From the NCBI GenBank assembly GCA_963851305.1, contig CAWKOT010000011.1:329716-393715 (forward strand): DNA of 64,000 nt, read 5' to 3'. Below, in pieces: positions 6,083 to 35,383 of the stretch (positions within the stretch are counted from its first letter, which is position 1; each line of letters opens with the position of its first letter). The position numbers and the translations under genes are program-made. This DNA comes from Pirellulaceae bacterium. Its GTDB lineage: Bacteria > Planctomycetota > Planctomycetia > Pirellulales > Pirellulaceae. The notes beneath the pieces were generated by a model, which was not told the DNA's origin, ran no database searches, and saw nothing but the letters and a program-made list of their open reading frames with translations.

Positions 6083-8233
6083 ATGAAACTGCGAATGGAT
6101 CGGAAGAAACCCATGTTGGATCATCTCATGACAGCCCGGAACGCAACGTTTGTCGTGATCCTCTGGCTGGGTTACGGCTTGAATCTGTACGGGCAGCCGG
6201 ATGACGCGTTGCAGAAATCGGAACTGGGTGCACGGCAACGCCTGGTCGAACGAAAAATGGTCGAACTGGAAAACCGGTTTACGGCCATCGCGGAAAAGTT
6301 GAAGGACAAGGAACCGGAGCGTCATCAACGCTTGGTGGCAGCATACCAGCAGGCAAAAGAGGATCTGATCACCCGCAAGATGGCGGAGATTGGCCAGTTG
6401 CTGGACGCTGGACAACTGGAGCCGGCGGAAGAAAAACTGGGACAGGTTATTCAGGCATTGGACGACCTGGTCCGCTTGTTGCTGAACAATCAGTCGCAAA
6501 AACCCGATCGGCAGGAACAGATTGCGCAACTTGAGGCCTGGAAGAAAACCATTCAGCAGTTGCGGCAAGAGCAGGTTCAGCAACGTACCGAGACCCGCAA
6601 GGTATCCAATAAAGACGCTGAGATTGCGAAGCTGGACGAACAGCTGAAGAAACTGGATGGTCTCATTGACCGTCAACGAGGATTGATCGAACAGTCGCGA
6701 CAGGCCGGCAACGCGGGTTTGCGAGCCCTCGACAAGGTGGCTGATCGCCAATTTGAATTGAGACAGGACACCCGGAATCTGGCTCGGGATGTGGCGGGTG
6801 AAAAGCCGGCTGCGGGAGACGGTCGACCGTCCTCGCCGACAAATGCCGAGTCGTCGGATGCGGCGGCACCGGATCGCCGCGGCGAAAACCAGGCGCAACC
6901 CGCCGGCCAGGGACAGGAATCGGATGCTGACTCAAGCGGCGAGCCATCAGACGAAGCCGCGGAACAACCTTCGGACAAGCCGCCAGGCGACGCATCCGAT
7001 GATTTACCCCAGCAGTCGCAATCCGGCAAGGATCCCAGGTCGGGTGGAAAATCGGGCGGCGACGGGTCGCCTGCCGGCCAGGCCGGTCGATCGGACAATG
7101 GGAACCAGCCGCCCCAGCCGGGACAAGCGCCGCTGGAGAAGGCGGCCGAGTCCCAGGCACGAGCGGAAGAGGATCTGGGCAGTGGGCGACCAGCCGACGC
7201 GGAGCGTCAGCAGCAACAGGCCCTGCAACAGATGGAACAGGCTCGATCGGAGCTGAAGAAAGAGCGACGACGACTGGCTTCCCTGCCGCCTGAGGCGGTC
7301 AAATCCATGGCTCGCAAACAGCGCCGTACGCGTGACAAGGCGCTCGAACTGGTGGAACAGATGGCCGAGGCACCGACTCAGGAAACCGGGCAGGATGAAC
7401 AGCAGGTCAGCCAGCCCAATGCGCCCAGCCAACCTGGGCAACAACCGATGAAACAGGCCTCCGAATCGATGCAGGGGGCCGCCGACGATCTGGAACAGCA
7501 GGACACCAGGCGGGCAGAAAGAAAACAGCAGCAGGCGCAAGAGAAACTCGATGAAGCGTTGGAAGAACTGGAAGAGAGACTGAATCAGCTGCGGGAAGAA
7601 ACCCGCGAAGAGAAACTGCGGCGCCTGGAAGGTCGCTTTCGCGAAATGCTGGATCGACAACGTTCGGTCAGCATGACCACGATTGAAGTCGACGACAGAA
7701 AAGTCAACCTCGGCCAGTTGCAACGACGGGATCAACTGGTGGTCTTACGGATGGCAACGGAAGAACTTGAAATCGGTGAACTGGGCCAGCAGGCTTATGA
7801 TCTGTTGCTGGAAGACGGTACCAGCGAAGTCTTCCCGGAAATGGTTCAGGATTTGAGGAGCGATCTGATCCGAGCCGGTGATCTATTGCAGCAGGAGCGA
7901 ACGGATCAGTTGACGCAATTGTTACATCAGGAAATTGAGTATGCGTTGCTGGATCTGCTGGGTGCGCTGGCGGAATCCAAGGACGAAGGCGATCAACAAG
8001 GGGGCGGTGGAGGCGGTGGCGGTGGCGACCAACCGTTGCTCAAGCCATCAGCGGAACTTAAAATGTTAAGGGCGGCTCAACAGCGTTTGAATCGCAAGAC
8101 CACTCAGCTGGATAGCATCCGAAATGCACGCGCAGGTCAGGACGATTCGCTGCGTCGGGAAATCGAAGGCCTGTCCGCTCAGCAGTCGAAGCTTCAGGAA
8201 ATGGCGGAGCAGATCATGGAAAAGGAAAACTGA
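6083..8233 (+). CDS. hypothetical coiled-coil protein with acidic, Q/E-rich low-complexity region and a poly-Gly tract
   Basis: 716-aa ORF with an N-terminal hydrophobic segment, long heptad-like E/Q/R-rich stretches and a GGGGGGGGG tract near the C-terminus. Several long antisense ORFs inside it are artefacts of GC-rich low complexity. Confidence 0.5.
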   Translation: MKLRMDRKKPMLDHLMTARNATFVVILWLGYGLNLYGQPDDALQKSELGARQRLVERKMVELENRFTAIAEKLKDKEPERHQRLVAAYQQAKEDLITRKMAEIGQLLDAGQLEPAEEKLGQVIQALDDLVRLLLNNQSQKPDRQEQIAQLEAWKKTIQQLRQEQVQQRTETRKVSNKDAEIAKLDEQLKKLDGLIDRQRGLIEQSRQAGNAGLRALDKVADRQFELRQDTRNLARDVAGEKPAAGDGRPSSPTNAESSDAAAPDRRGENQAQPAGQGQESDADSSGEPSDEAAEQPSDKPPGDASDDLPQQSQSGKDPRSGGKSGGDGSPAGQAGRSDNGNQPPQPGQAPLEKAAESQARAEEDLGSGRPADAERQQQQALQQMEQARSELKKERRRLASLPPEAVKSMARKQRRTRDKALELVEQMAEAPTQETGQDEQQVSQPNAPSQPGQQPMKQASESMQGAADDLEQQDTRRAERKQQQAQEKLDEALEELEERLNQLREETREEKLRRLEGRFREMLDRQRSVSMTTIEVDDRKVNLGQLQRRDQLVVLRMATEELEIGELGQQAYDLLLEDGTSEVFPEMVQDLRSDLIRAGDLLQQERTDQLTQLLHQEIEYALLDLLGALAESKDEGDQQGGGGGGGGGDQPLLKPSAELKMLRAAQQRLNRKTTQLDSIRNARAGQDDSLRREIEGLSAQQSKLQEMAEQIMEKEN

Positions 8234-31448: not shown

Positions 31449-32627
31449 TCACAACAGGTTGACGACCCGGTCCGCCAGGCCCTGTTCACCGAGCACGACG
31501 TTCAGGTTACCGCTGGACGCGACCTTTTCCAGAACTTCCAGTTCTCGCAGTCGCATCAAGGTCGGGTTGTCCACCAACAGCCGGGCGGTATTCGACTGGC
31601 TGCGCATGGCTGCGGTTTCCTCGCGACGGGCAATCAGGTTGGCTTCGGCCGCCTTCCTGGCTTCGGTCACCTTGTTCATCAGGTCCTTCATTTCGCCCGG
31701 CAGGATGATGTCGCGGATACCCACCGATACGATCGCCAGTCCCAATTCACTCGCCCGCTGGTGTAGTTGTTGCTGGAATTCGTCAGTCACGGCATCCTTG
31801 TCGGTCAAGAACGAATCCAGATCACGGGTGCCCACCAACGCTCGCAGCGCCAACTGCGCCTGGCGGTACAGGGACTGCATCGCGCCATCGCTGACCATCA
31901 CGGCCTTGCAGGCATCGATTACCTTGTAGGTGACCAGTGCGTTCATCCGCAGGGTGACCTTGTCGGCGGTCATGATTTCCTGGCCCGCCACATCCAGGGT
32001 CTGTTCACGGGTGTCCACTTCGACCACCTTGGTATCCGCCACGTTCTTCCAGAACGCGTATTGTCCCGGTGACAGAGTTTCCACCAGGCGACCATCGCAA
32101 AAGGCCACGCCGACGTGGTTCCGCTGCACGGTGCAGACATCCAACAGGCCGGTGGCGCCGGATGAACGAACGATCGACATCAATTCGGCGTGATCAAATC
32201 GCACCTGGTGAGCGTCCACCAGTTCCACGCGGACGTCCTTGAAGCCGGTCCAGTAGGCGTACAGCCCCGGCGACAGCACGTGACTGAAACGACCGTCGAT
32301 CCAGACCAGACCACGCTGGTGATCCTTCAGATCGACAACTTCTGCCAGGCCCTTGAGCGCGCCACTCTTGATCATCACCTCCAGTTCGTCGTGGATGATC
32401 CATGCGTTTCGCTGTGAAACCACTTCCACGCGGACCTTCCACAGCGGATCGAACAGCCGGTGCTGACCGGCGGTCAGCACACGCTGGAATTCACCATCGC
32501 GGAAGTACAGACCGATTTCGTAACGGCGAATCTTTACTCGCTTGAAGATCATGGTCTTCCTCCCTTCGTCAAATAGACTTGAAAATTCACTCATAACACC
32601 AACCCAAATCAGCGACGGACCAGCCAT
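31449..32627 (-). CDS. SPFH/band-7 (stomatin/prohibitin-like) domain protein with an N-terminal threefold repeat
   Basis: The C-terminal SPFH core is TADKVTLRMNALVTYKVID...IVSVGIRDIILPGEMKDLMNKVTEARKAAEANLI. The N-terminal 200 aa hold three copies of a (F/W)xDGxF..L(S/T)xGxY motif. Confidence 0.7.
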   Translation of the reverse strand: MAGPSLIWVGVMSEFSSLFDEGRKTMIFKRVKIRRYEIGLYFRDGEFQRVLTAGQHRLFDPLWKVRVEVVSQRNAWIIHDELEVMIKSGALKGLAEVVDLKDHQRGLVWIDGRFSHVLSPGLYAYWTGFKDVRVELVDAHQVRFDHAELMSIVRSSGATGLLDVCTVQRNHVGVAFCDGRLVETLSPGQYAFWKNVADTKVVEVDTREQTLDVAGQEIMTADKVTLRMNALVTYKVIDACKAVMVSDGAMQSLYRQAQLALRALVGTRDLDSFLTDKDAVTDEFQQQLHQRASELGLAIVSVGIRDIILPGEMKDLMNKVTEARKAAEANLIARREETAAMRSQSNTARLLVDNPTLMRLRELEVLEKVASSGNLNVVLGEQGLADRVVNLL

Positions 32628-33052
32628 CCGGTTTGGATGGACGTCTCCGGTCCGATTTGGCTGCGTGATTGATTTACCATTTGGATGTCTGTTCTGGGTG
32701 CCGGTTCGCGTTTGTCTGAAAAACTCCCTCCGTCAGCAGAACCATCGTTCGATCACACGTCCGAAACGCGGAGTGCTGTTTGAGCGGTCATGTTCATGGA
32801 AGACGTGGGCAACTTTCGCGGCCGAAGCCAGGCAAGCTAATGCTTGTCTGACGTCATGCCGTTCCCGTTGCCGCGATCGACCACGCGCGTGAAGGCGGTA
32901 TCCACGCACTGCAGGGCGCCGGTAAGTGTTGCCGCGAATGTTCCACGGAACGACCAGGCGTCCGGGGTAATTCACGGCCGATCCAACGACGGTCTGCCGA
33001 CTTCGGGATTCAGGGAGGGACCTTGCGGTCCCGTGCAAGCTGCAAGACTTGC

Positions 33053-33125
33053 GGTGTGGTACGGGAATCGAACCCGTGACAACCAGGTTAACAGCCTGAT
33101 GCTCTGCCAACTGAGCTAACCAATG
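33053..33125 (-). tRNA. tRNA-Asn(GTT)-like; acceptor-stem halves mismatched at the top three pairs (possible pseudo or chimeric tRNA)
   Basis: D-arm GCTC/GAGC, anticodon arm TCAGG-CTGTTAA-CCTGG and T-arm ACGGG-TTCGATT-CCCGT are all good. The 3' acceptor ACCACAC does not pair with the 5' CATTGGT. Confidence 0.45.
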
Positions 33126-33340
33126 AAGGTTGGTTTCGCCATGCCAGTTCGAAGCCAATCACGGTACACTCAACACCAACCAGCTGAATGGGGTGCAGAA
33201 CGCCGCTGGCCATTCTGGCCAAACCTTGCCTGAAAATTCATGTGGATCATCTTCCGTTCAACCACGTCCGTGATGGCAGTGGCTTATTCTTGCCCGTCGT
33301 ACGCCAACCAGGTTAAACGTCAGTCCAACAGGGGACCAGG

Positions 33341-33411
33341 AGACGCCGATGGGAGTCGAACCCATTTCGACCGGGTTGCAACCGGTTGCCTGGCCGTCTG
33401 GCTCCAGCGCC
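33341..33411 (-). tRNA. tRNA-Cys(GCA)-like
   Basis: Anticodon arm ACCGG-TTGCAAC-CCGGT, T-arm ATGGG-TTCGACT-CCCAT. Acceptor GGCGCTG/CGGCGTC pairs with two G-U wobbles. G8, 3-bp D-stem. Confidence 0.5.
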
Positions 33412-33418
33412 CAAATAG

Positions 33419-33489
33419 TAGCCCGTCCAGGAATCGAACCTGGCCTGCGACCTTCGCACGGTCGCGTGCCTCCAACACACTCACAGGCT
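33419..33489 (-). tRNA. tRNA-Arg(GCG)-like
   Basis: Anticodon loop GTGCGAA between CGACC/GGTCG. T-arm CCAGG-TTCGATT-CCTGG. Acceptor AGCCTGT/ACGGGCT. G8 and GTGT D-stem. Confidence 0.5.
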
Positions 33490-33556
33490 ATCTTGTCTTT
33501 TCAGGTTTTCATTTTGATGGTCGGCTCCAACGATCTGTTTCCTTGGCCGTCATCAG

Positions 33557-33628
33557 TACCTCGCCAGGGAATCGAACCCCGTCCTGCAGATTCGAAGTCT
33601 GCCGTGCCATCCGTCACACTCGCAAGGC
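33557..33628 (-). tRNA. tRNA-Arg(TCG)
   Basis: Anticodon arm GCAGA-CTTCGAA-TCTGC. T-arm CGGGG-TTCGATT-CCCTG. Acceptor GCCTTGC/GCGAGGT with two G-U pairs. Confidence 0.55.
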
Positions 33629-33659
33629 ATCCGCATTGGCTTACCGCTGGCCGGTCGAG

Positions 33660-33730
33660 CAGGAGTGCCAGGAATCGAACCCTTTGGTGGCGGTTTTGGA
33701 GGCCGCCCGCTTGCCCAGAAGCACACTGCC
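33660..33730 (-). tRNA. tRNA-Trp(CCA)-like (weak T-stem)
   Basis: Anticodon loop CTCCAAA. T-loop TTCGATT, but the T-stem pairs poorly (AAGGG/CCTGG). Possibly affected by an indel. Confidence 0.4.
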
Positions 33731-33740
33731 GAAGGCGAAG

Positions 33741-33814
33741 GGTATCCGACGGGAATCGAACCCGTACTTCCTGCTTCACAGGCAGGCGTGCATGCCCGCT
33801 ACACTTCGGATACC
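33741..33814 (-). tRNA. tRNA-His(GTG) with G-1
   Basis: Acceptor GTATCCG/CGGATAC is perfect, with an extra 5' G pairing the C73 discriminator. Anticodon arm CCTGC-CTGTGAA-GCAGG. T-arm ACGGG-TTCGATT-CCCGT. A8. Confidence 0.75.
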
Positions 33815-33870
33815 ATGCCAGGGAGATGAAAAGTCGTCGATCCGAAACCGATACGGCCTGGACCAGACTG

Positions 33871-33951
33871 TTTTCATCAGTGGAACGTCGGGGAGTCGAA
33901 CCCCGATTGTCCGGTTGCAAACCAGAAGTCTTCCCGTTGGACCAACGTCCC
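33871..33951 (-). tRNA. tRNA-Ala(TGC) with the G3:U70 identity pair
   Basis: Acceptor GGGACGT/ACGTTCC gives G3-U70. Anticodon arm TCTGG-TTTGCAA-CCGGA. T-arm CGGGG-TTCGACT-CCCCG. U8. Confidence 0.7.
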
Positions 33952-33962
33952 CTGATTGCCCG

Positions 33963-34033
33963 AGGTCCGTCCGGGGTTCGAACCCGGTCTTCGTCGGTAC
34001 CATCAACGCGTGCTGCCGGAACACTTACAGACC
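33963..34033 (-). tRNA. tRNA-Thr(GGT)
   Basis: Anticodon arm CGTTG-ATGGTAC-CGACG. T-arm CCGGG-TTCGAAC-CCCGG. Acceptor GGTCTGT/ACGGACC. A8, GTGT/GCAC D-stem. Confidence 0.6.
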
Positions 34034-34069
34034 AATACAGGCGTCCCCATTTGCCGGGGCAACCTGAAG

Positions 34070-34138
34070 TAGCGGGACCGGGAGTCGCACCCGATGGTCA
34101 AGGCATATGAAACCTCGCTGAGCACTCGCTCGCCCGCT
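34070..34138 (-). tRNA. tRNA-Met(CAT)-like with a non-canonical T-loop (TGCGACT)
   Basis: Anticodon loop TTCATAT. The T-loop has G in place of T55. Acceptor has one mismatch. Possibly degenerate. Confidence 0.4.
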
Positions 34139-34337
34139 CGATTCTTCTTTTGCCGTCCTCCGTCCGTTGCGCTCGGCACGTTGGCAATCCGCTCTGGATC
34201 GGGTTTGTCAGGCCCCACCAGACAGCTGGCCAGATTGCCGTTAATACGAAGCACTGCAGCTTTGCGACTCCAGTAATCTCCAGCAATCTGTCAACGCTCC
34301 TGCGACGGATCCGCCGTACGGACCGTTGATTGTCGAG

Positions 34338-34417
34338 TAGCACGGGTGGGAGTCGAACCCACAGACAATCACGAAGGTTTGAGCTTCGCCGCTTTACCAT
34401 GATTTGCGCACCGTGCC
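34338..34417 (-). tRNA. tRNA-Leu(CAA)-like (extended variable region)
   Basis: Anticodon arm CGAAG-CTCAAAC-CTTCG. Variable region of about 9 nt. T-arm GTGGG-TTCGACT-CCCAC. Acceptor GGCACGG/CCGTGCT. Confidence 0.55.
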
Positions 34418-34424
34418 GCTTGAG

Positions 34425-34499
34425 CGCCCCCGATGGGATTTGAACCCACGACCTCCTGTGTGACAAACAGGCGAGCACTCCGGACTGCTCCACGAGGAC
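34425..34499 (-). tRNA. tRNA-Asp(GTC)
   Basis: Acceptor GTCCTCG/CGGGGGC. D-arm GAGC/GCTC. Anticodon arm CCTGT-TTGTCAC-ACAGG. T-arm GTGGG-TTCAAAT-CCCAT. Canonical U8. Confidence 0.75.
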
Positions 34500-34511
34500 A
34501 TTACATTGCAG

Positions 34512-34584
34512 TAGTCCTGGGTGGACTCGAACCACCGATCTGCTGCTTGTAAGGCAGTTGCCCTCGCCGCTGGGCCACAGGACC
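34512..34584 (-). tRNA. tRNA-Val(TAC)
   Basis: Acceptor GGTCCTG/CAGGACT. D-arm GCCC/GGGC. Anticodon loop CTTACAA. T-arm GGTGG-TTCGAGT-CCACC. Confidence 0.7.
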
Positions 34585-34593
34585 ATGGGTCAG

Positions 34594-34677
34594 CGGAAGC
34601 CGTGGGACTCGAACCCACAAGTCGCGGTACGACCGACTGTTTTCAAGACAGTTTCCTCATCCGGCCGGATGGCTTCC
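34594..34677 (-). tRNA. tRNA-Ser(TGA), type II with a long variable arm
   Basis: Acceptor GGAAGCC/GGCTTCC is perfect. Anticodon arm ACTGT-CTTGAAA-ACAGT. Variable arm of about 17 nt. T-arm GTGGG-TTCGAGT-CCCAC. Confidence 0.7.
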
Positions 34678-34688
34678 GTATTCGCCAG

Positions 34689-34759
34689 CTGCGGGAGTTG
34701 GAATCGAACCAACATCGAAACGTTCAGAGCGTTTCATCCTGCCATTAGAAGATCCCGCA
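34689..34759 (-). tRNA. tRNA-Gln(CTG)
   Basis: Acceptor TGCGGGA/TCCCGCA is perfect. Anticodon arm AAACG-CTCTGAA-CGTTT. T-arm GTTGG-TTCGATT-CCAAC. Confidence 0.65.
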
Positions 34760-34775
34760 GGAGTATTTGCGTCAG

Positions 34776-34848
34776 CTGCGGCGGCAGGAATCGAACCTGC
34801 GGCACGAAGATTAACAGTCCCCGCCCCGTACCAACACAGGACACCGCA
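34776..34848 (-). tRNA. tRNA-Asn(GTT)
   Basis: Acceptor TGCGGTG/CGCCGCA. Anticodon loop CTGTTAA. T-arm GCAGG-TTCGATT-CCTGC. Weak D-stem. Confidence 0.55.
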
Positions 34849-34933
34849 TCAATTTCGTCAATCACAATGGCGGTGTACCCACGCCGGTCTCAACGGATTG
34901 ATGACGAGCGCAGCGGTGCCACGTGTTCACGGA

Positions 34934-35004
34934 AGCGCCCAGCCGGAATCGAACCGACACATCCTGCATGGCAAGCAGGAAGGCTGCCACTACATCATGG
35001 GCGC
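34934..35004 (-). tRNA. tRNA-Gly(GCC)-like (degenerate D-arm)
   Basis: Acceptor GCGCCCA/TGGGCGC is perfect. Anticodon arm CCTGC-TTGCCAT-GCAGG. T-arm GTCGG-TTCGATT-CCGGC. The D-stem is not clearly paired. Confidence 0.5.
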
Positions 35005-35073
35005 GATACAACGCGAACCGAATTGTCAAAGATCAGGCGCGGGTTGTTCAGCATGGCCGAACTTTCCGTGCGT

Positions 35074-35146
35074 TTGTTTTCAGTGGGACCGGAGGGACTT
35101 GAACCCTCACCCGCCTGGGTAAGAACCAGGGATGCTGCCGTTAACA
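35074..35146 (-). tRNA. tRNA-Lys(CTT)
   Basis: Acceptor GGGACTG/CGGTCCC. Anticodon arm CCTGG-TTCTTAC-CCAGG. T-arm GAGGG-TTCAAGT-CCCTC. A8, GTGT D-stem. Confidence 0.6.
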
Positions 35147-35310
35147 CCTCAGTCCCCAATGGTCTGCCGTTGGCATGAAGGAATTGCATCTGGCGGTGTG
35201 ACTTGTCAGATCAACACGCTAAACACGAAGCTTCAGGCCTGCTGTGCGGTATTTCCAACACTCCAGCGGTGATTCATTTGAATTTCCGTTTCCCATTGGT
35301 TCTGGTTTCA

Positions 35311-35383
35311 GTGGTAGTCCTGGGAATCGAATCCTCGTCTGCAGTTTTTCAGACTGCCGCTAAACCGTCTCAGCTACCGGCCC
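35311..35383 (-). tRNA. tRNA-Phe(GAA)-like 5' half with a non-matching 3' half (probable pseudo or chimeric tRNA at the upstream end of the array)
   Basis: The 5' acceptor GGGCCGG, D-arm GCTG-AGACGGTT-TAGC and anticodon arm GCAGT-CTGAAAA-ACTGC are coherent. The T-stem does not pair, and the expected 3' acceptor CCGGCCC is absent. Confidence 0.4.

Follow-up and report, generated by a model that had tools for sequence, protein, structure and literature searches.

A probable reduced copy of a chromosomally fixed tRNA array in a Pirellulaceae bacterium, with a tRNA-like domain at its downstream end

In the genome of a Pirellulaceae bacterium (assembly GCA_963851305.1), a dense array of tRNA genes lies upstream of a gene for an SPFH/Band_7 protein. 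Both are contained in a 64,000-nt stretch of contig CAWKOT010000011.1 (positions 329,716 to 393,715), referred to here as the window, in which the array occupies the minus strand from 35383 to 33053; all coordinates below are those of the window unless a locus is named. This region probably derives, by gene loss, from an ancient operon of supernumerary tRNA genes, all on one strand and at a fixed chromosomal site, that is found in the class Planctomycetia and is of the type called an L-array or a degenerate tRNA gene cluster. On comparative grounds, the array looks vertically inherited and under selection, yet dispensable. It belongs to a kind already noted in Planctomycetes, and the new elements are its apparently vertical inheritance at a fixed locus, the systematic presence of A8:U14 and G8:G14 with covariation, an erosion through deletion from T-loop to T-loop, and a terminal "tRNA" that is a domain of a large RNA.

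A search with the SPFH/Band_7 protein encoded downstream of the array, restricted to one genome per species, yielded 80 loci (L001-L080), all from Planctomycetota, the best flanking-protein matches (77-78% identity) coming from Adhaeretor mobilis, the metagenome-assembled genome (MAG) NAT130 and a Pirellulales MAG. Arrays of 20-40 tRNAs are located upstream of the SPFH gene, on the same strand and in the same order, in L001, L002, L005, L014, L033, L034, L039, L041, L059, L072, L077 and others, and the genera that carry them include Adhaeretor, Lacipirellula, Bythopirellula, Rhodopirellula, Schlesneria and Thalassoglobus. The locus is shared by Pirellulales and Planctomycetales, including the complete isolate genomes CP036263 and CP036339. 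In these relatives, the order runs Phe-Glu-Pro-Ile-Lys-Ile(TAT)-Lys-Thr-Gly-Pro-Asn-Ser-Gly-Gln-Gln-Ser-Val-Leu-Asp-Leu-Tyr-Glu and continues Leu-Met-Leu-Val-Thr-Ala-Ala-Ser-Arg-Ser-His-Trp-Thr-Arg(x3-4)-Cys, and the 14-18 genes of the window are a subset of it with the order kept. Instead of the sporadic distribution through horizontal transfer that marks L-arrays, the same locus, strand and gene order were found in two orders, and the array appears to have been inherited vertically at a fixed chromosomal site, with repeated loss. When only the 44 loci whose upstream flank extends to 6.5 kb or more are counted, 17 hold at least 20 genes, 6 hold 5-19 and 21 hold at most 4. Where the array is absent it looks to have been lost, since residual Cys, Arg or Trp genes are left behind, Cys being kept in many genomes that lost the rest of the array. 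In a Rhodopirellula/Mariniblastus-like clade (L036, L055, L066, L071 and L074), an array-type Trp-CCA gene adjoins the tRNA-like domain described below at the same distance of about 104 nt, some 550-600 nt upstream of the Band_7 match.

Comparison of the orthologues shows that the array members, idiosyncratic in structure as they are, evolve as folded tRNAs. Consensus folding with RNAalifold revealed compensatory changes at 10 of 20 pairs in Cys (40 orthologues), 14 of 21 in Arg-GCG (34 orthologues) and 13 of 20 in Lys-CTT and Thr-GGT; in these families the changes fall in the acceptor, anticodon and T stems, and the cloverleaf with its 7-bp acceptor is maintained. The genes of the window are 85-100% identical to their orthologues (Gly 100%, Lys and Arg-GCG 97%, Arg-TCG 96%) where the flanking protein reaches only 77-78%, and spacer lengths are not conserved, the two Arg genes lying 66 nt apart in one case versus 3 nt in another. 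Measured against the sets established for E. coli, the window cloverleafs keep the identity elements of Ala (G3:U70), His (G-1/C73), Cys (U73), Gln (U1:A72/G73), Asp (G73/G10) and Gly (U73 with G1:C72, C2:G71 and G3:C70), and Ser retains long arms. In 852 planctomycete array tRNAs, the trailer after the discriminator has C74 in 84% and U75 in 85%, most commonly as CTG, CTT or CTC, and this conservation suggests a 3'-processing signal; such trailers are seen in the window at 35082-35080, 34592-34590 and 33879-33877. CCA is encoded by 13 of the 852 genes and by none of the array genes in the window.

The covariance-model scoring that had been proposed for the array members was carried out with Rfam and gave 30.6-66.1 bits in the window. 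In relatives, array members score 30-67 bits, a canonical Ile-UAU gene at 74 bits aside, and tRNAs outside arrays score 54-75 bits. The outside genes include Leu-CAA in L034, Arg-CCG in L022, Asn-GTT in L054 and Phe in L043, all with U8:A14 and TAGCTCA-type D-arms, and Thr-CGT, Pro-CGG and Met genes likewise occur outside arrays in relatives. The Cys array gene may be the sole copy, one Cys gene per planctomycete genome being given in table S3 of Kim et al. 2016 (PMC4807772). Taken together, the divergent core, the signs of selection and the canonical copies elsewhere suggest that the array therefore constitutes a second, structurally divergent tRNA set.

The pair between U8 and A14 is among the most conserved tertiary contacts in tRNA. 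An earlier note on this DNA, made from the sequence of the window, had remarked that about half of the array members lack U8, and the cloverleafs and orthologue alignments agree: eight of 18 elements (44%) do so, the same eight that the note had listed, with A8 in Lys-CTT, Ser-TGA, Thr-GGT and His-GTG and G8 in Arg-TCG, Arg-GCG, Cys-GCA and Met. The backbone R8-R9-GTGT, also pointed out there, is present in five members, namely Lys (AG-GTGT), Thr and His (AA-GTGT) and both Arg (GA-GTGT). The canonical reverse-Hoogsteen U8:A14 pair is absent from the non-U8 members, which have A8:U14, G8:G14 or A8:A14 instead. Outside arrays in related genomes, U8:A14 is found in 8 of 9 tRNAs, the ninth being a doubtful 85-nt ARAGORN call of "Ala-GGC" with G8:C14 (L005:13984-14068), and in phage arrays it is found in 301 of 336. 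Across species, position 8 is family-specific, some of the counts being approximate: G in Cys (30/42), Arg-GCG (27/33), Arg-TCG (25/28) and Met (9/14), and A in Ser-GCT (24/25), Lys-CTT (18/23), Thr-GGT (14/14) and Ser-TGA (10/12), and T8 is uniform in most of the remaining array families. Position 14 is T in Lys-CTT (16/23) and Thr-GGT (14/14) and G in Arg-TCG (24/28).

Considered jointly in 653 array tRNAs, for which only calls with a 2-nt spacer were tabulated, positions 8 and 14 read T:A in 446, A:T in 32 and G:G in 77, with few mixed states and a descriptive chi-square of 645. Double switches occur within families, with T:A 9 versus G:G 3 in Arg-CCG, T:A 20 versus G:G 2 in Arg-TCT and A:T 15 versus T:A 4 in Lys-CTT. 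The window obeys this pattern, with A8:U14 in Lys and Thr and G8:G14 in both Arg, Cys and Met; the A8:A14 of its His is a minority state in a family with T8 in 20 of 26 sequences and A8 otherwise only in L005. In the alignments of Arg-GCG, Lys-CTT and Thr-GGT, the GTGT strand pairs with GCAY and the U13-G22 wobble is invariant. The missing U8 is one half of a replaced tertiary pair, usually seated on a GUGU/GCAY D-stem. A Hoogsteen G8-G14 pair replacing U8-A14 has been proposed for tDNA-Thr(TGT) of Haloferax volcanii (Grosjean et al. 2008, PMC2584109), where G8 is likewise accompanied by G14; however, that is a single exceptional archaeal gene, whereas in planctomycete arrays G8:G14 (Arg, Cys, Met) and A8:U14 (Lys, Thr) are fixed in whole families across many genomes. 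The Haloferax remark was the sole return of a literature search for A8-U14 or G8-G14 tRNAs.

The shared backbone had also been taken to suggest paralogous duplication followed by anticodon switching. Duplication is supported only for the two Arg genes (79% identical), for which no switch is needed because both carry the same amino-acid identity, and switching among His, Thr, Lys and Arg is not supported, their identities of 66-72% being background. In all-against-all comparisons within arrays, only pairs for the same amino acid exceed background, and His, Thr, Lys and Arg each retain their own anticodon in orthologous arrays; any duplication and switch among them would be older than the ancestor that Pirellulales and Planctomycetales share. 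The GTGT D-stem is by itself no proof of paralogy.

The downstream terminal element, previously read as an Asn tRNA whose acceptor strands CATTGGT and ACCACAC cannot pair, has proved to be of another nature. That description of the acceptor was slightly overstated, since only the three top positions are unpaired and four bottom pairs are formed (positions 4-7 with 66-69). Orthologues of this tRNA-like domain were identified in 60 of the 80 genome loci, many of the rest being unmatched for want of upstream sequence, and the domain persists where the array is absent (L017, L019, L023, L046, L062-65 and L075). From pair 7:66 to pair 1:72, the acceptor is paired in 100, 95, 88, 57, 43, 30 and 13% of these 60 loci, so defining a conserved stump of pairs 5-7 with 66-68 only (GGT/ACC, 3 bp), to which the window adds one pair, and Rfam matches are local in every orthologue checked, running from model position 4/5 through 66/67. 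The body is near-invariant in more than 100 loci (GGT-TAGCTCAG..GGTAGAGCACCAGA-loop-TCTGG..GTCRCGGGTTCGAYTCCCGTACC). The anticodon, in contrast to the near-invariant body, is free: at least 25 different triplets occur in the 60 genome loci, many of them with A34 (ATG, AAG, AGT, ACT, AGG, ATT), and 19 in 41 metagenome instances; anticodon loops of 6 and 8 nt also occur among the genome loci, and positions 32, 33, 37 and 38 vary much less. The 7-bp acceptor stem and conserved anticodon by which a tRNA gene is recognized are both missing from 33125-33053. The element is neither an array tRNA nor a scar, and is most plausibly an internal domain of a larger conserved RNA, with an anticodon triplet that is not used for pairing.

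Several further observations concern this domain. NCCA stands exactly at positions 73-76 in about 20 of the 60 orthologues (for example, L008, L013, L014, L016, L026, L029 and L053), with the acceptor top unpaired, and many others read CGCA; the NCCA may point to an ancestral tRNA gene in which CCA was encoded, in contrast to the array members. Hypermutation or diversity generation of the anticodon was considered and rejected, as L013 and L014, whose flanking open reading frame (ORF) DNA is about 88% identical, differ at 3-4 of 7 loop positions, which is the expectation for unconstrained sites, and A-targeted mutagenesis is unlikely because A residues elsewhere in the domain are conserved. L031 and L050, two contigs of the MAG SRP287051_co1_163, are 100% identical over about 500 nt from the T-arm onward and differ in their anticodon arms (CCC versus ATG, with a compensating stem change), in their upstream arrays and in their SPFH ORFs, which are only about 88% identical; this pattern reflects either recombination that broke within the anticodon arm or an artefact of co-assembly, and it may be an assembly effect because both contigs come from one co-assembled MAG. 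In a variant, L121, about 250 nt upstream of the motif used in the metagenome scan, the D-arm is remodelled (CCGCTCACCAGGTGAGC) and the anticodon and T arms are kept.

The larger RNA extends on both sides of the tRNA-like domain. Its 5' domain fills the near-constant spacer of about 104 nt that separates the last tRNA from the tRNA-like domain in relatives. Its 3' domain, of about 330 nt, begins with two small hairpins, after which comes a multi-helix domain that a long-range helix closes (33005-32990 with 32743-32730); it contains the near-invariant blocks GATCGGCC (32983-32976), GCAGTGCGTGGATACCGC (32912-32894) and GACCGCTCAAACAGCAC (32789-32773), and terminates in GGAGGGAGTTTTT (32731-32719), a short hairpin with a U-rich tract being present at the 3' end of the RNA in many sequences, not all. 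In a control for the 3' domain, 91.3% of cells were paired as against 34-43% with slid partners, the covariation score was 0.418 as against about 0.1, and 0 of 500 shuffles reached the observed value. The mechanical ORF of the SPFH gene begins at 32627, and alignment of the leader together with a GGGAGG Shine-Dalgarno sequence favours the ATG at 32552 (MIFKRV), the likely true start, about 165 nt after the U-run at 32723-32719. A scan of metagenomes with a 19-nt motif of the 3' domain, independent of the protein, gave 110 stretches, of which 80 were fetched (L117-L196). The SPFH gene lies downstream in 57 of 57 true instances with enough sequence, the tRNA-like domain is present in all inspected instances except L160, and six motif matches in unrelated coding DNA are chance.

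These data point to a conserved RNA of about 515 nt that is linked to the SPFH gene and absent from Rfam, a search of which with the large RNA gave no match at E<=10. A T-box riboswitch was considered and rejected, since no column triplet complements the anticodon more often than in shuffled data (maximum 6/40; shuffles 5-8) and RF00230 gave no match at E<=10, and the lack of an RNA triplet covarying with the anticodon argues against a T-box-like specifier. The "Rhodopirellula-1" motif (Weinberg 2010) was also discarded as an identity for the large RNA, being an unrelated repeated hairpin. Non-decoding modules shaped like tRNA are found within longer RNAs in plant mitochondrial t-elements, the MALAT1 mascRNA, the tRNA-like domain of tmRNA and the Y RNA YrlA. 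The resemblance lies in a non-decoding tRNA shape inside or attached to a longer RNA, whereas here a complete cloverleaf with a 3-bp stump is internal to a bacterial RNA of about 515 nt; the Rfam models of mascRNA and tmRNA showed no significant match in the window.

The upstream terminal element, by contrast with the downstream one, is a true scar, so that the suggestion of scars or decayed copies at the array edges holds for the Phe element and fails for the downstream "Asn". As had been reported, the 5' strand GGGCCGG of 35383-35311 has no CCGGCCC partner. In BLAST comparisons, 35383-35327 corresponds to the 5' part of the array Phe gene through the T-loop (91% identity over 57 nt to the Phe gene of L002), and 35331-35311 matches the array Ile-GAT gene at its 3' end (100% identity over 21 nt to the L005 copy, which ends in GTTCGATTCCCAGGACTACCAC), with the junction inside the T-loop sequence TTCGA. 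The 16 Phe orthologues have the sequence GGGCYGG-TA-GCTG-AGAYGG...GAGGATTCGAGCGCCTCCCRGCCCA, and the window agrees with them up to GAGGATTCGA and then reads TTCCCAGGACTACCAC. Ile-GAT follows Phe at a distance of three or four genes in relatives, and the Glu and Pro genes between them are absent from the window. A deletion from T-loop to T-loop, leaving a Phe 5' part joined to an Ile-GAT 3' tail, therefore removed Glu, Pro and the intervening gene halves. The Tyr, Glu-CTC, Leu-CAG, Leu-GAG and Val-GAC genes are also gone, from 34336-34034, and the window copy has lost more than half of its genes; further losses are point decay, comprising the Ile-TAT remnant, the weakened Met, Trp and Asn members and the A8:A14 of His. 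The array Phe family (L002:3676-3748 with 15 orthologues, and 35383-35327 of the window) also shows a conserved mismatch, A53-G61, where the T-stem of nearly all tRNAs has the pair G53:C61.

The features of the region are collected in Table 1, and the coordinates of the array members given by the earlier note were accurate. With default settings, ARAGORN called 14 tRNAs between 33339 and 35156 (Lys-CTT, Gly-GCC, Asn-GTT, Gln-CTG, Ser-TGA, Val-TAC, Asp-GTC, Leu-CAA, Thr-GGT, Ala-TGC, His-GTG, Arg-TCG, Arg-GCG and Cys-GCA). The Rfam tRNA model, at or above its gathering score, adds the terminal elements 33057-33122 (54.1 bits) and 35315-35383 (31.9 bits), relaxed ARAGORN adds Trp-CCA at 33659-33730, and orthologue alignment adds an initiator-like Met at about 34138-34069, bringing the three approaches to about 18 elements. 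All are co-oriented, with spacers mostly of 6-110 nt and three decayed gaps of about 155-200 nt. The density is about 7-8 per kb, with 14 confident and at most 17 tRNA genes or remnants in 2.05 kb (33339-35383); counting the tRNA-like domain, there are 18 elements in 2.33 kb.

Table 1. Elements of the tRNA array, the large RNA and the SPFH gene in the 64,000-nt window
Feature	Position	Strand	Characteristics and evidence
Phe(GAA)/Ile(GAT) deletion chimera, pseudogene, first array element	35311..35383	-	Alignment to 16 Phe orthologues; BLAST; Rfam 31.9 bits
Ile(TAT) 3'-end remnant, 23 nt	35169..35191	-	AGATGCAATTCCTTCATGCCAAC versus A. mobilis Ile-TAT 3' end AGGTTCAATTCCTTCCACGCCAA; no tRNA called there
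tRNA-Lys(CTT)	35083..35156	-	A8:U14, G9-GTGT D-stem; ARAGORN; 97% identity to L002 orthologue; compensatory pairs
tRNA-Gly(GCC)	34934..35004	-	U8, U73, G1:C72, C2:G71, G3:C70; ARAGORN; 100% identity over 70 nt to A. mobilis orthologue
tRNA-Asn(GTT), array member	34775..34848	-	Low covariance-model score (Rfam 32.6 bits); ARAGORN; BLAST spans orthologue positions 9-76 only
tRNA-Gln(CTG)	34688..34759	-	U8, U1:A72, G73; ARAGORN; Rfam 53.3 bits
tRNA-Ser(TGA)	34593..34677	-	A8 as single-nucleotide spacer, 3-bp D-stem, long variable arm; ARAGORN; best Rfam match tRNA-Sec, 38.3 bits, below threshold
tRNA-Val(TAC), most canonical member	34511..34584	-	U8:A14; ARAGORN; Rfam 66.1 bits
tRNA-Asp(GTC)	34424..34499	-	U8, G10, G73; ARAGORN; Rfam 52.8 bits
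tRNA-Leu(CAA)	34337..34417	-	Variable region shortened and unpaired, U8, A73; ARAGORN; 98% identity over 62 nt to L014 orthologue
Initiator-like tRNA-Met(CAT), degenerate	34069..34138	-	G8, very short D-arm, T-loop UGCGA; alignment to 13 Met orthologues; weak tRNA-like Rfam match 34056-34136; no ARAGORN call
tRNA-Thr(GGT)	33962..34033	-	A8:U14, A9-GTGT; ARAGORN; compensatory pairs
tRNA-Ala(TGC)	33880..33951	-	U8, G3:U70; ARAGORN; Rfam 52.1 bits
tRNA-His(GTG)	33740..33813	-	G-1, C73, A8:A14; ARAGORN; Rfam 60.4 bits
tRNA-Trp(CCA)	33659..33730	-	One acceptor mismatch, T-stem partly mispaired; relaxed ARAGORN only; 88.6% identity to L005 Trp
tRNA-Arg(TCG)	33556..33628	-	G8:G14, A9-GTGT; ARAGORN; 96% identity to L002; Rfam 30.6 bits
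tRNA-Arg(GCG)	33418..33489	-	G8:G14, A9-GTGT; ARAGORN; 34 orthologues, GAGTGTG nearly invariant
tRNA-Cys(GCA), last true array tRNA	33339..33411	-	G8:G14, U73; ARAGORN; 40 orthologues
5' domain of large RNA	33126..33232	-	Blocks GCAAGG, CCAGCGGCG, GTGTWCCG..TGG; alignment: 20 pairs, 13 with compensatory changes
tRNA-like domain (formerly read as Asn), anticodon GTT	33053..33125	-	Canonical D-, anticodon and T-arms, U8/A9; Rfam 54.1 bits, model positions 4-67 only
3' domain of large RNA	32719..33052	-	RNAalifold, 43 sequences: 80 pairs, 58 with compensatory changes
SPFH/Band_7 gene	31449..32552	-	Pfam PF01145, E=6e-32

Some members depart from canonical tRNAs in other respects. On a reading of the raw sequence without a dedicated alignment, the Asn member at 34775-34848 apparently lacks the GG found at positions 8-9 of the A. 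mobilis orthologue. Array Leu tRNAs are 73-81 nt long with short or unpaired variable regions (34337-34417 of the window; L001:7087-7161, 7260-7338 and 8148-8224), a canonical Leu-CAA outside the array (L034:15896-15980) measures 85 nt with a long arm, and array Ser and Tyr retain long variable arms. The T-loop UGCGA, with G55 replacing U55, occurs in one array Met lineage that includes 34138-34069. The array is surrounded by ordinary chromosomal genes (histidinol dehydrogenase, an aminotransferase, transporters, HEAT and TPR proteins), and the G+C content of the window is uniform. A strong terminator-like hairpin at 35589-35563 on the minus strand, with an 11-bp stem and a T7 run after it, precedes the first array element by about 180 nt and probably ends the preceding minus-strand transcript, in which case the array promoter would fall in 35563-35384; a sigma-70-like site was looked for in that interval, and none was found.

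Two kinds of described system resemble the array. In the S2 text of Kim et al. 2016 (PMC4807772), "degenerate tRNA gene clusters" of Planctomycetes are characterized as partially degraded, low-scoring, probably derived from horizontal gene transfer (HGT) and dispensable, and they are also described there as rapidly evolving, with disrupted synteny and one highly canonical Ile-UAU inside. The clusters share with the present array the phylum, the dense, same-strand, low-scoring and non-canonical tRNA genes, and the canonical tRNAs elsewhere. The single canonical Ile-UAU that it mentions is found in relatives (L034 5167-5239, 74.1 bits), and the window has only the remnant at 35191-35169. The present data differ from it in one conserved locus and order across Pirellulales and Planctomycetales, in compensatory evolution and in the systematic 8:14 replacement, and the portions of its text considered here contain no mention of the tRNA-like domain or the large RNA. 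L-arrays, for which Planctomycetes are listed, consist of supernumerary tRNA genes for most amino acids, as many as about 40, which are co-oriented, closely packed and arranged non-periodically (Santamaria-Gomez et al. 2021, PMC8421152; Tran et al. 2016, PMC4758250). They are sporadic and spread by HGT, often on plasmids, on integrative and conjugative elements or beside homing endonucleases (PMC8421152, PMC4758250), whereas the planctomycete array is apparently vertical, at a fixed chromosomal site and repeatedly lost. An array unit in the sense of Tran 2016 has a minimum of 20 genes and no fewer than 2 of them per kb; the window reaches this density with a lower count (14-18), and the orthologous arrays contain 23-39 genes.

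Large phages carry arrays as well. The array Phe motif matched 36 IMG/VR contigs, of which about 30 are large phage arrays and three are the planctomycete array itself; the array Arg motif, scanned against viral sequences, gave no match. The phage arrays (L082, L086, L091, L103, L105, L108, L109, L113 and L116 from IMG/VR) are dense, with 15-36 tRNAs, and share with the planctomycete arrays an unusual Phe D-arm, GGTAGCTGAGAYGGNNTAGC, and an occasional A8:U14 Lys. However, they have 90% U8:A14 and 68% CCA-encoding genes, whereas planctomycete arrays have about 38% non-U8 and 1.5% CCA, and the gene orders are unrelated. Because they are mostly CCA-encoding and 90% U8:A14, the phage arrays are no close relatives. 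A phage origin of the ancestral array is possible. L085, L090 and L102, labelled viral by IMG/VR, carry the planctomycete array in its usual order; in L090 and L102 the adjoining ORFs are of cellular type, encoding glycosyltransferases, a sulfotransferase and proteins of the YcjX-like and DUF697 kinds, and no phage genes flank these arrays.

How the array and its oddities arose can be explained in several other ways. It was suggested in the earlier note that the non-U8 positions and unpaired acceptor ends might reflect sequencing or assembly errors, since indel errors seemed possible elsewhere in the window, and a few details would fit, as the Asn member is apparently two nucleotides short at 8-9 relative to A. 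mobilis and the A8:A14 of His is unusual for its family. However, the oddities are not sequencing errors, because identical non-U8 states recur in the orthologues of dozens of independent assemblies, including CP036263 and CP036339, and covary with position 14; the same terminal acceptor stump is present in 60 of 60 loci, and the 3' half of the Phe element is a perfect 21-nt match to another array gene. This explanation is already refuted for the family-level features and is scarcely credible for the window as a whole. Almost as improbable is the proposal that 33125-33053 represents a tRNA-Asn gene in decay, or what is left of an att site used when the array integrated. A canonical tRNA body scoring 54 bits, its position at the array edge, and the NCCA at 73-76 in about 20 of 60 orthologues, as if from a CCA-encoding gene, would suit such an origin; against it, only the anticodon triplet and the acceptor top are free in a body near-invariant in more than 100 loci, and the element persists without the array, keeps a fixed spacing of about 104 nt to the tRNA before it, and is bordered on both sides by RNA that covariation supports.

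More serious, although still unlikely, is the possibility that the array descends from a cluster acquired horizontally, possibly from phage, and is now a fossil under neutral decay whose members are functionless pseudogenes. This would accord with the description of such clusters as partially degraded, low-scoring and probably HGT-derived by Kim et al. 2016 (PMC4807772), with their loss in about half of the genomes, with the chimera and remnants in the window, with scores below those of canonical tRNAs and with the array-type Phe D-arm in about 30 large phage arrays. Neutral decay, however, yields neither compensatory stem changes nor coordinated 8:14 switches, and the genes remain 85-100% identical while their spacers diverge, keep their identity elements, share the C74-U75 trailer in about 85% of 852 cases and stand in the same order across two orders, whereas phage arrays are mostly CCA-encoding (68%) and 90% U8:A14. 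A slightly less probable alternative holds that the RNAs are made and have a main role other than decoding, as decoys or substitutes that escape tRNA-targeting nucleases, toxins or near-UV, or as donors for aminoacyl-tRNA-dependent transferases. Phage tRNAs are able to evade anticodon nucleases. Without U8 there would be no s4U8, and since the GUGU D-stem has no C13 there would be no 8-13 photocrosslink. The conserved alteration of the core (8:14, the U-G pair 13:22, short D-arms and short Leu variable arms), the nearly complete anticodon repertoire and the example of the Anabaena L-array, which is induced under translational stress and aids survival (PMC8421152), speak for such a role. Against it, the array in the window has no linked gene for a toxin, a nuclease, a transferase or ThiI.

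Several points weigh against the preferred reading of an inherited, selected operon. Comparison of the loci indicates that the array is dispensable, having been lost from about half of the genomes, and Cys at this site is not universally retained because Trp replaces it in L036, L055, L066, L071 and L074. The window itself carries the chimera, remnants and weak members (Asn 32.6, Arg-TCG 30.6 and Phe 31.9 bits; Met and Trp missed at default settings). Canonical duplicates in its own genome are extrapolated from relatives, and a function of the array in translation is suggested by conservation only. The ARAGORN register is imperfect for members with 1- or 3-nt spacers, which makes some position-8 counts approximate, and the chi-square for positions 8 and 14 is no true probability because the sequences share descent.

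If the region is indeed such an operon, it could be transcribed as a single precursor, which RNase P and a 3' endonuclease would cut, the latter at the conserved N73-C-U trailer; CCA would then be added, and normal synthetases would charge the array tRNAs. These would form an alternative or back-up pool, with the canonical copies elsewhere performing housekeeping, and the tRNA-like domain would have a structural role, or one in processing, within a leader or non-coding RNA that is linked to the SPFH gene. A bolder proposal, which is put forward tentatively and is rather doubtful, combines both parts. It would make the large RNA an undescribed class with a non-decoding, tRNA-shaped middle domain, fixed between the last array tRNA and the SPFH gene throughout Planctomycetia and serving in cis as a regulatory leader or, once processed, as a non-coding RNA whose mimicry of tRNA engages the machinery that handles tRNAs (such as RNase P, modification enzymes or an intramolecular elbow-docking module), and would make the array no pseudogene graveyard and instead a working second tRNA set built on an alternative core (A8:U14, G8:G14 and the GUGU D-stem).

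The A8:U14 and G8:G14 families, kept across a deep bacterial divergence, amount to a natural experiment on the rebuilding of the tRNA core, and the non-U8 families bear on tRNA gene finders and on U8-dependent modifications such as s4U8. The Phe/Ile chimera offers one concrete mechanism by which an array may shrink, and a by-product of the comparison may be a new class of large RNA, with a tRNA-like domain inside an RNA of about 0.5 kb before the SPFH gene. The "degenerate clusters" of planctomycetes were formerly seen as recently acquired junk; the present data point to an ancient operon that would be selected yet dispensable, and the purpose of long tRNA arrays becomes testable in cultured Adhaeretor mobilis or Lacipirellula.

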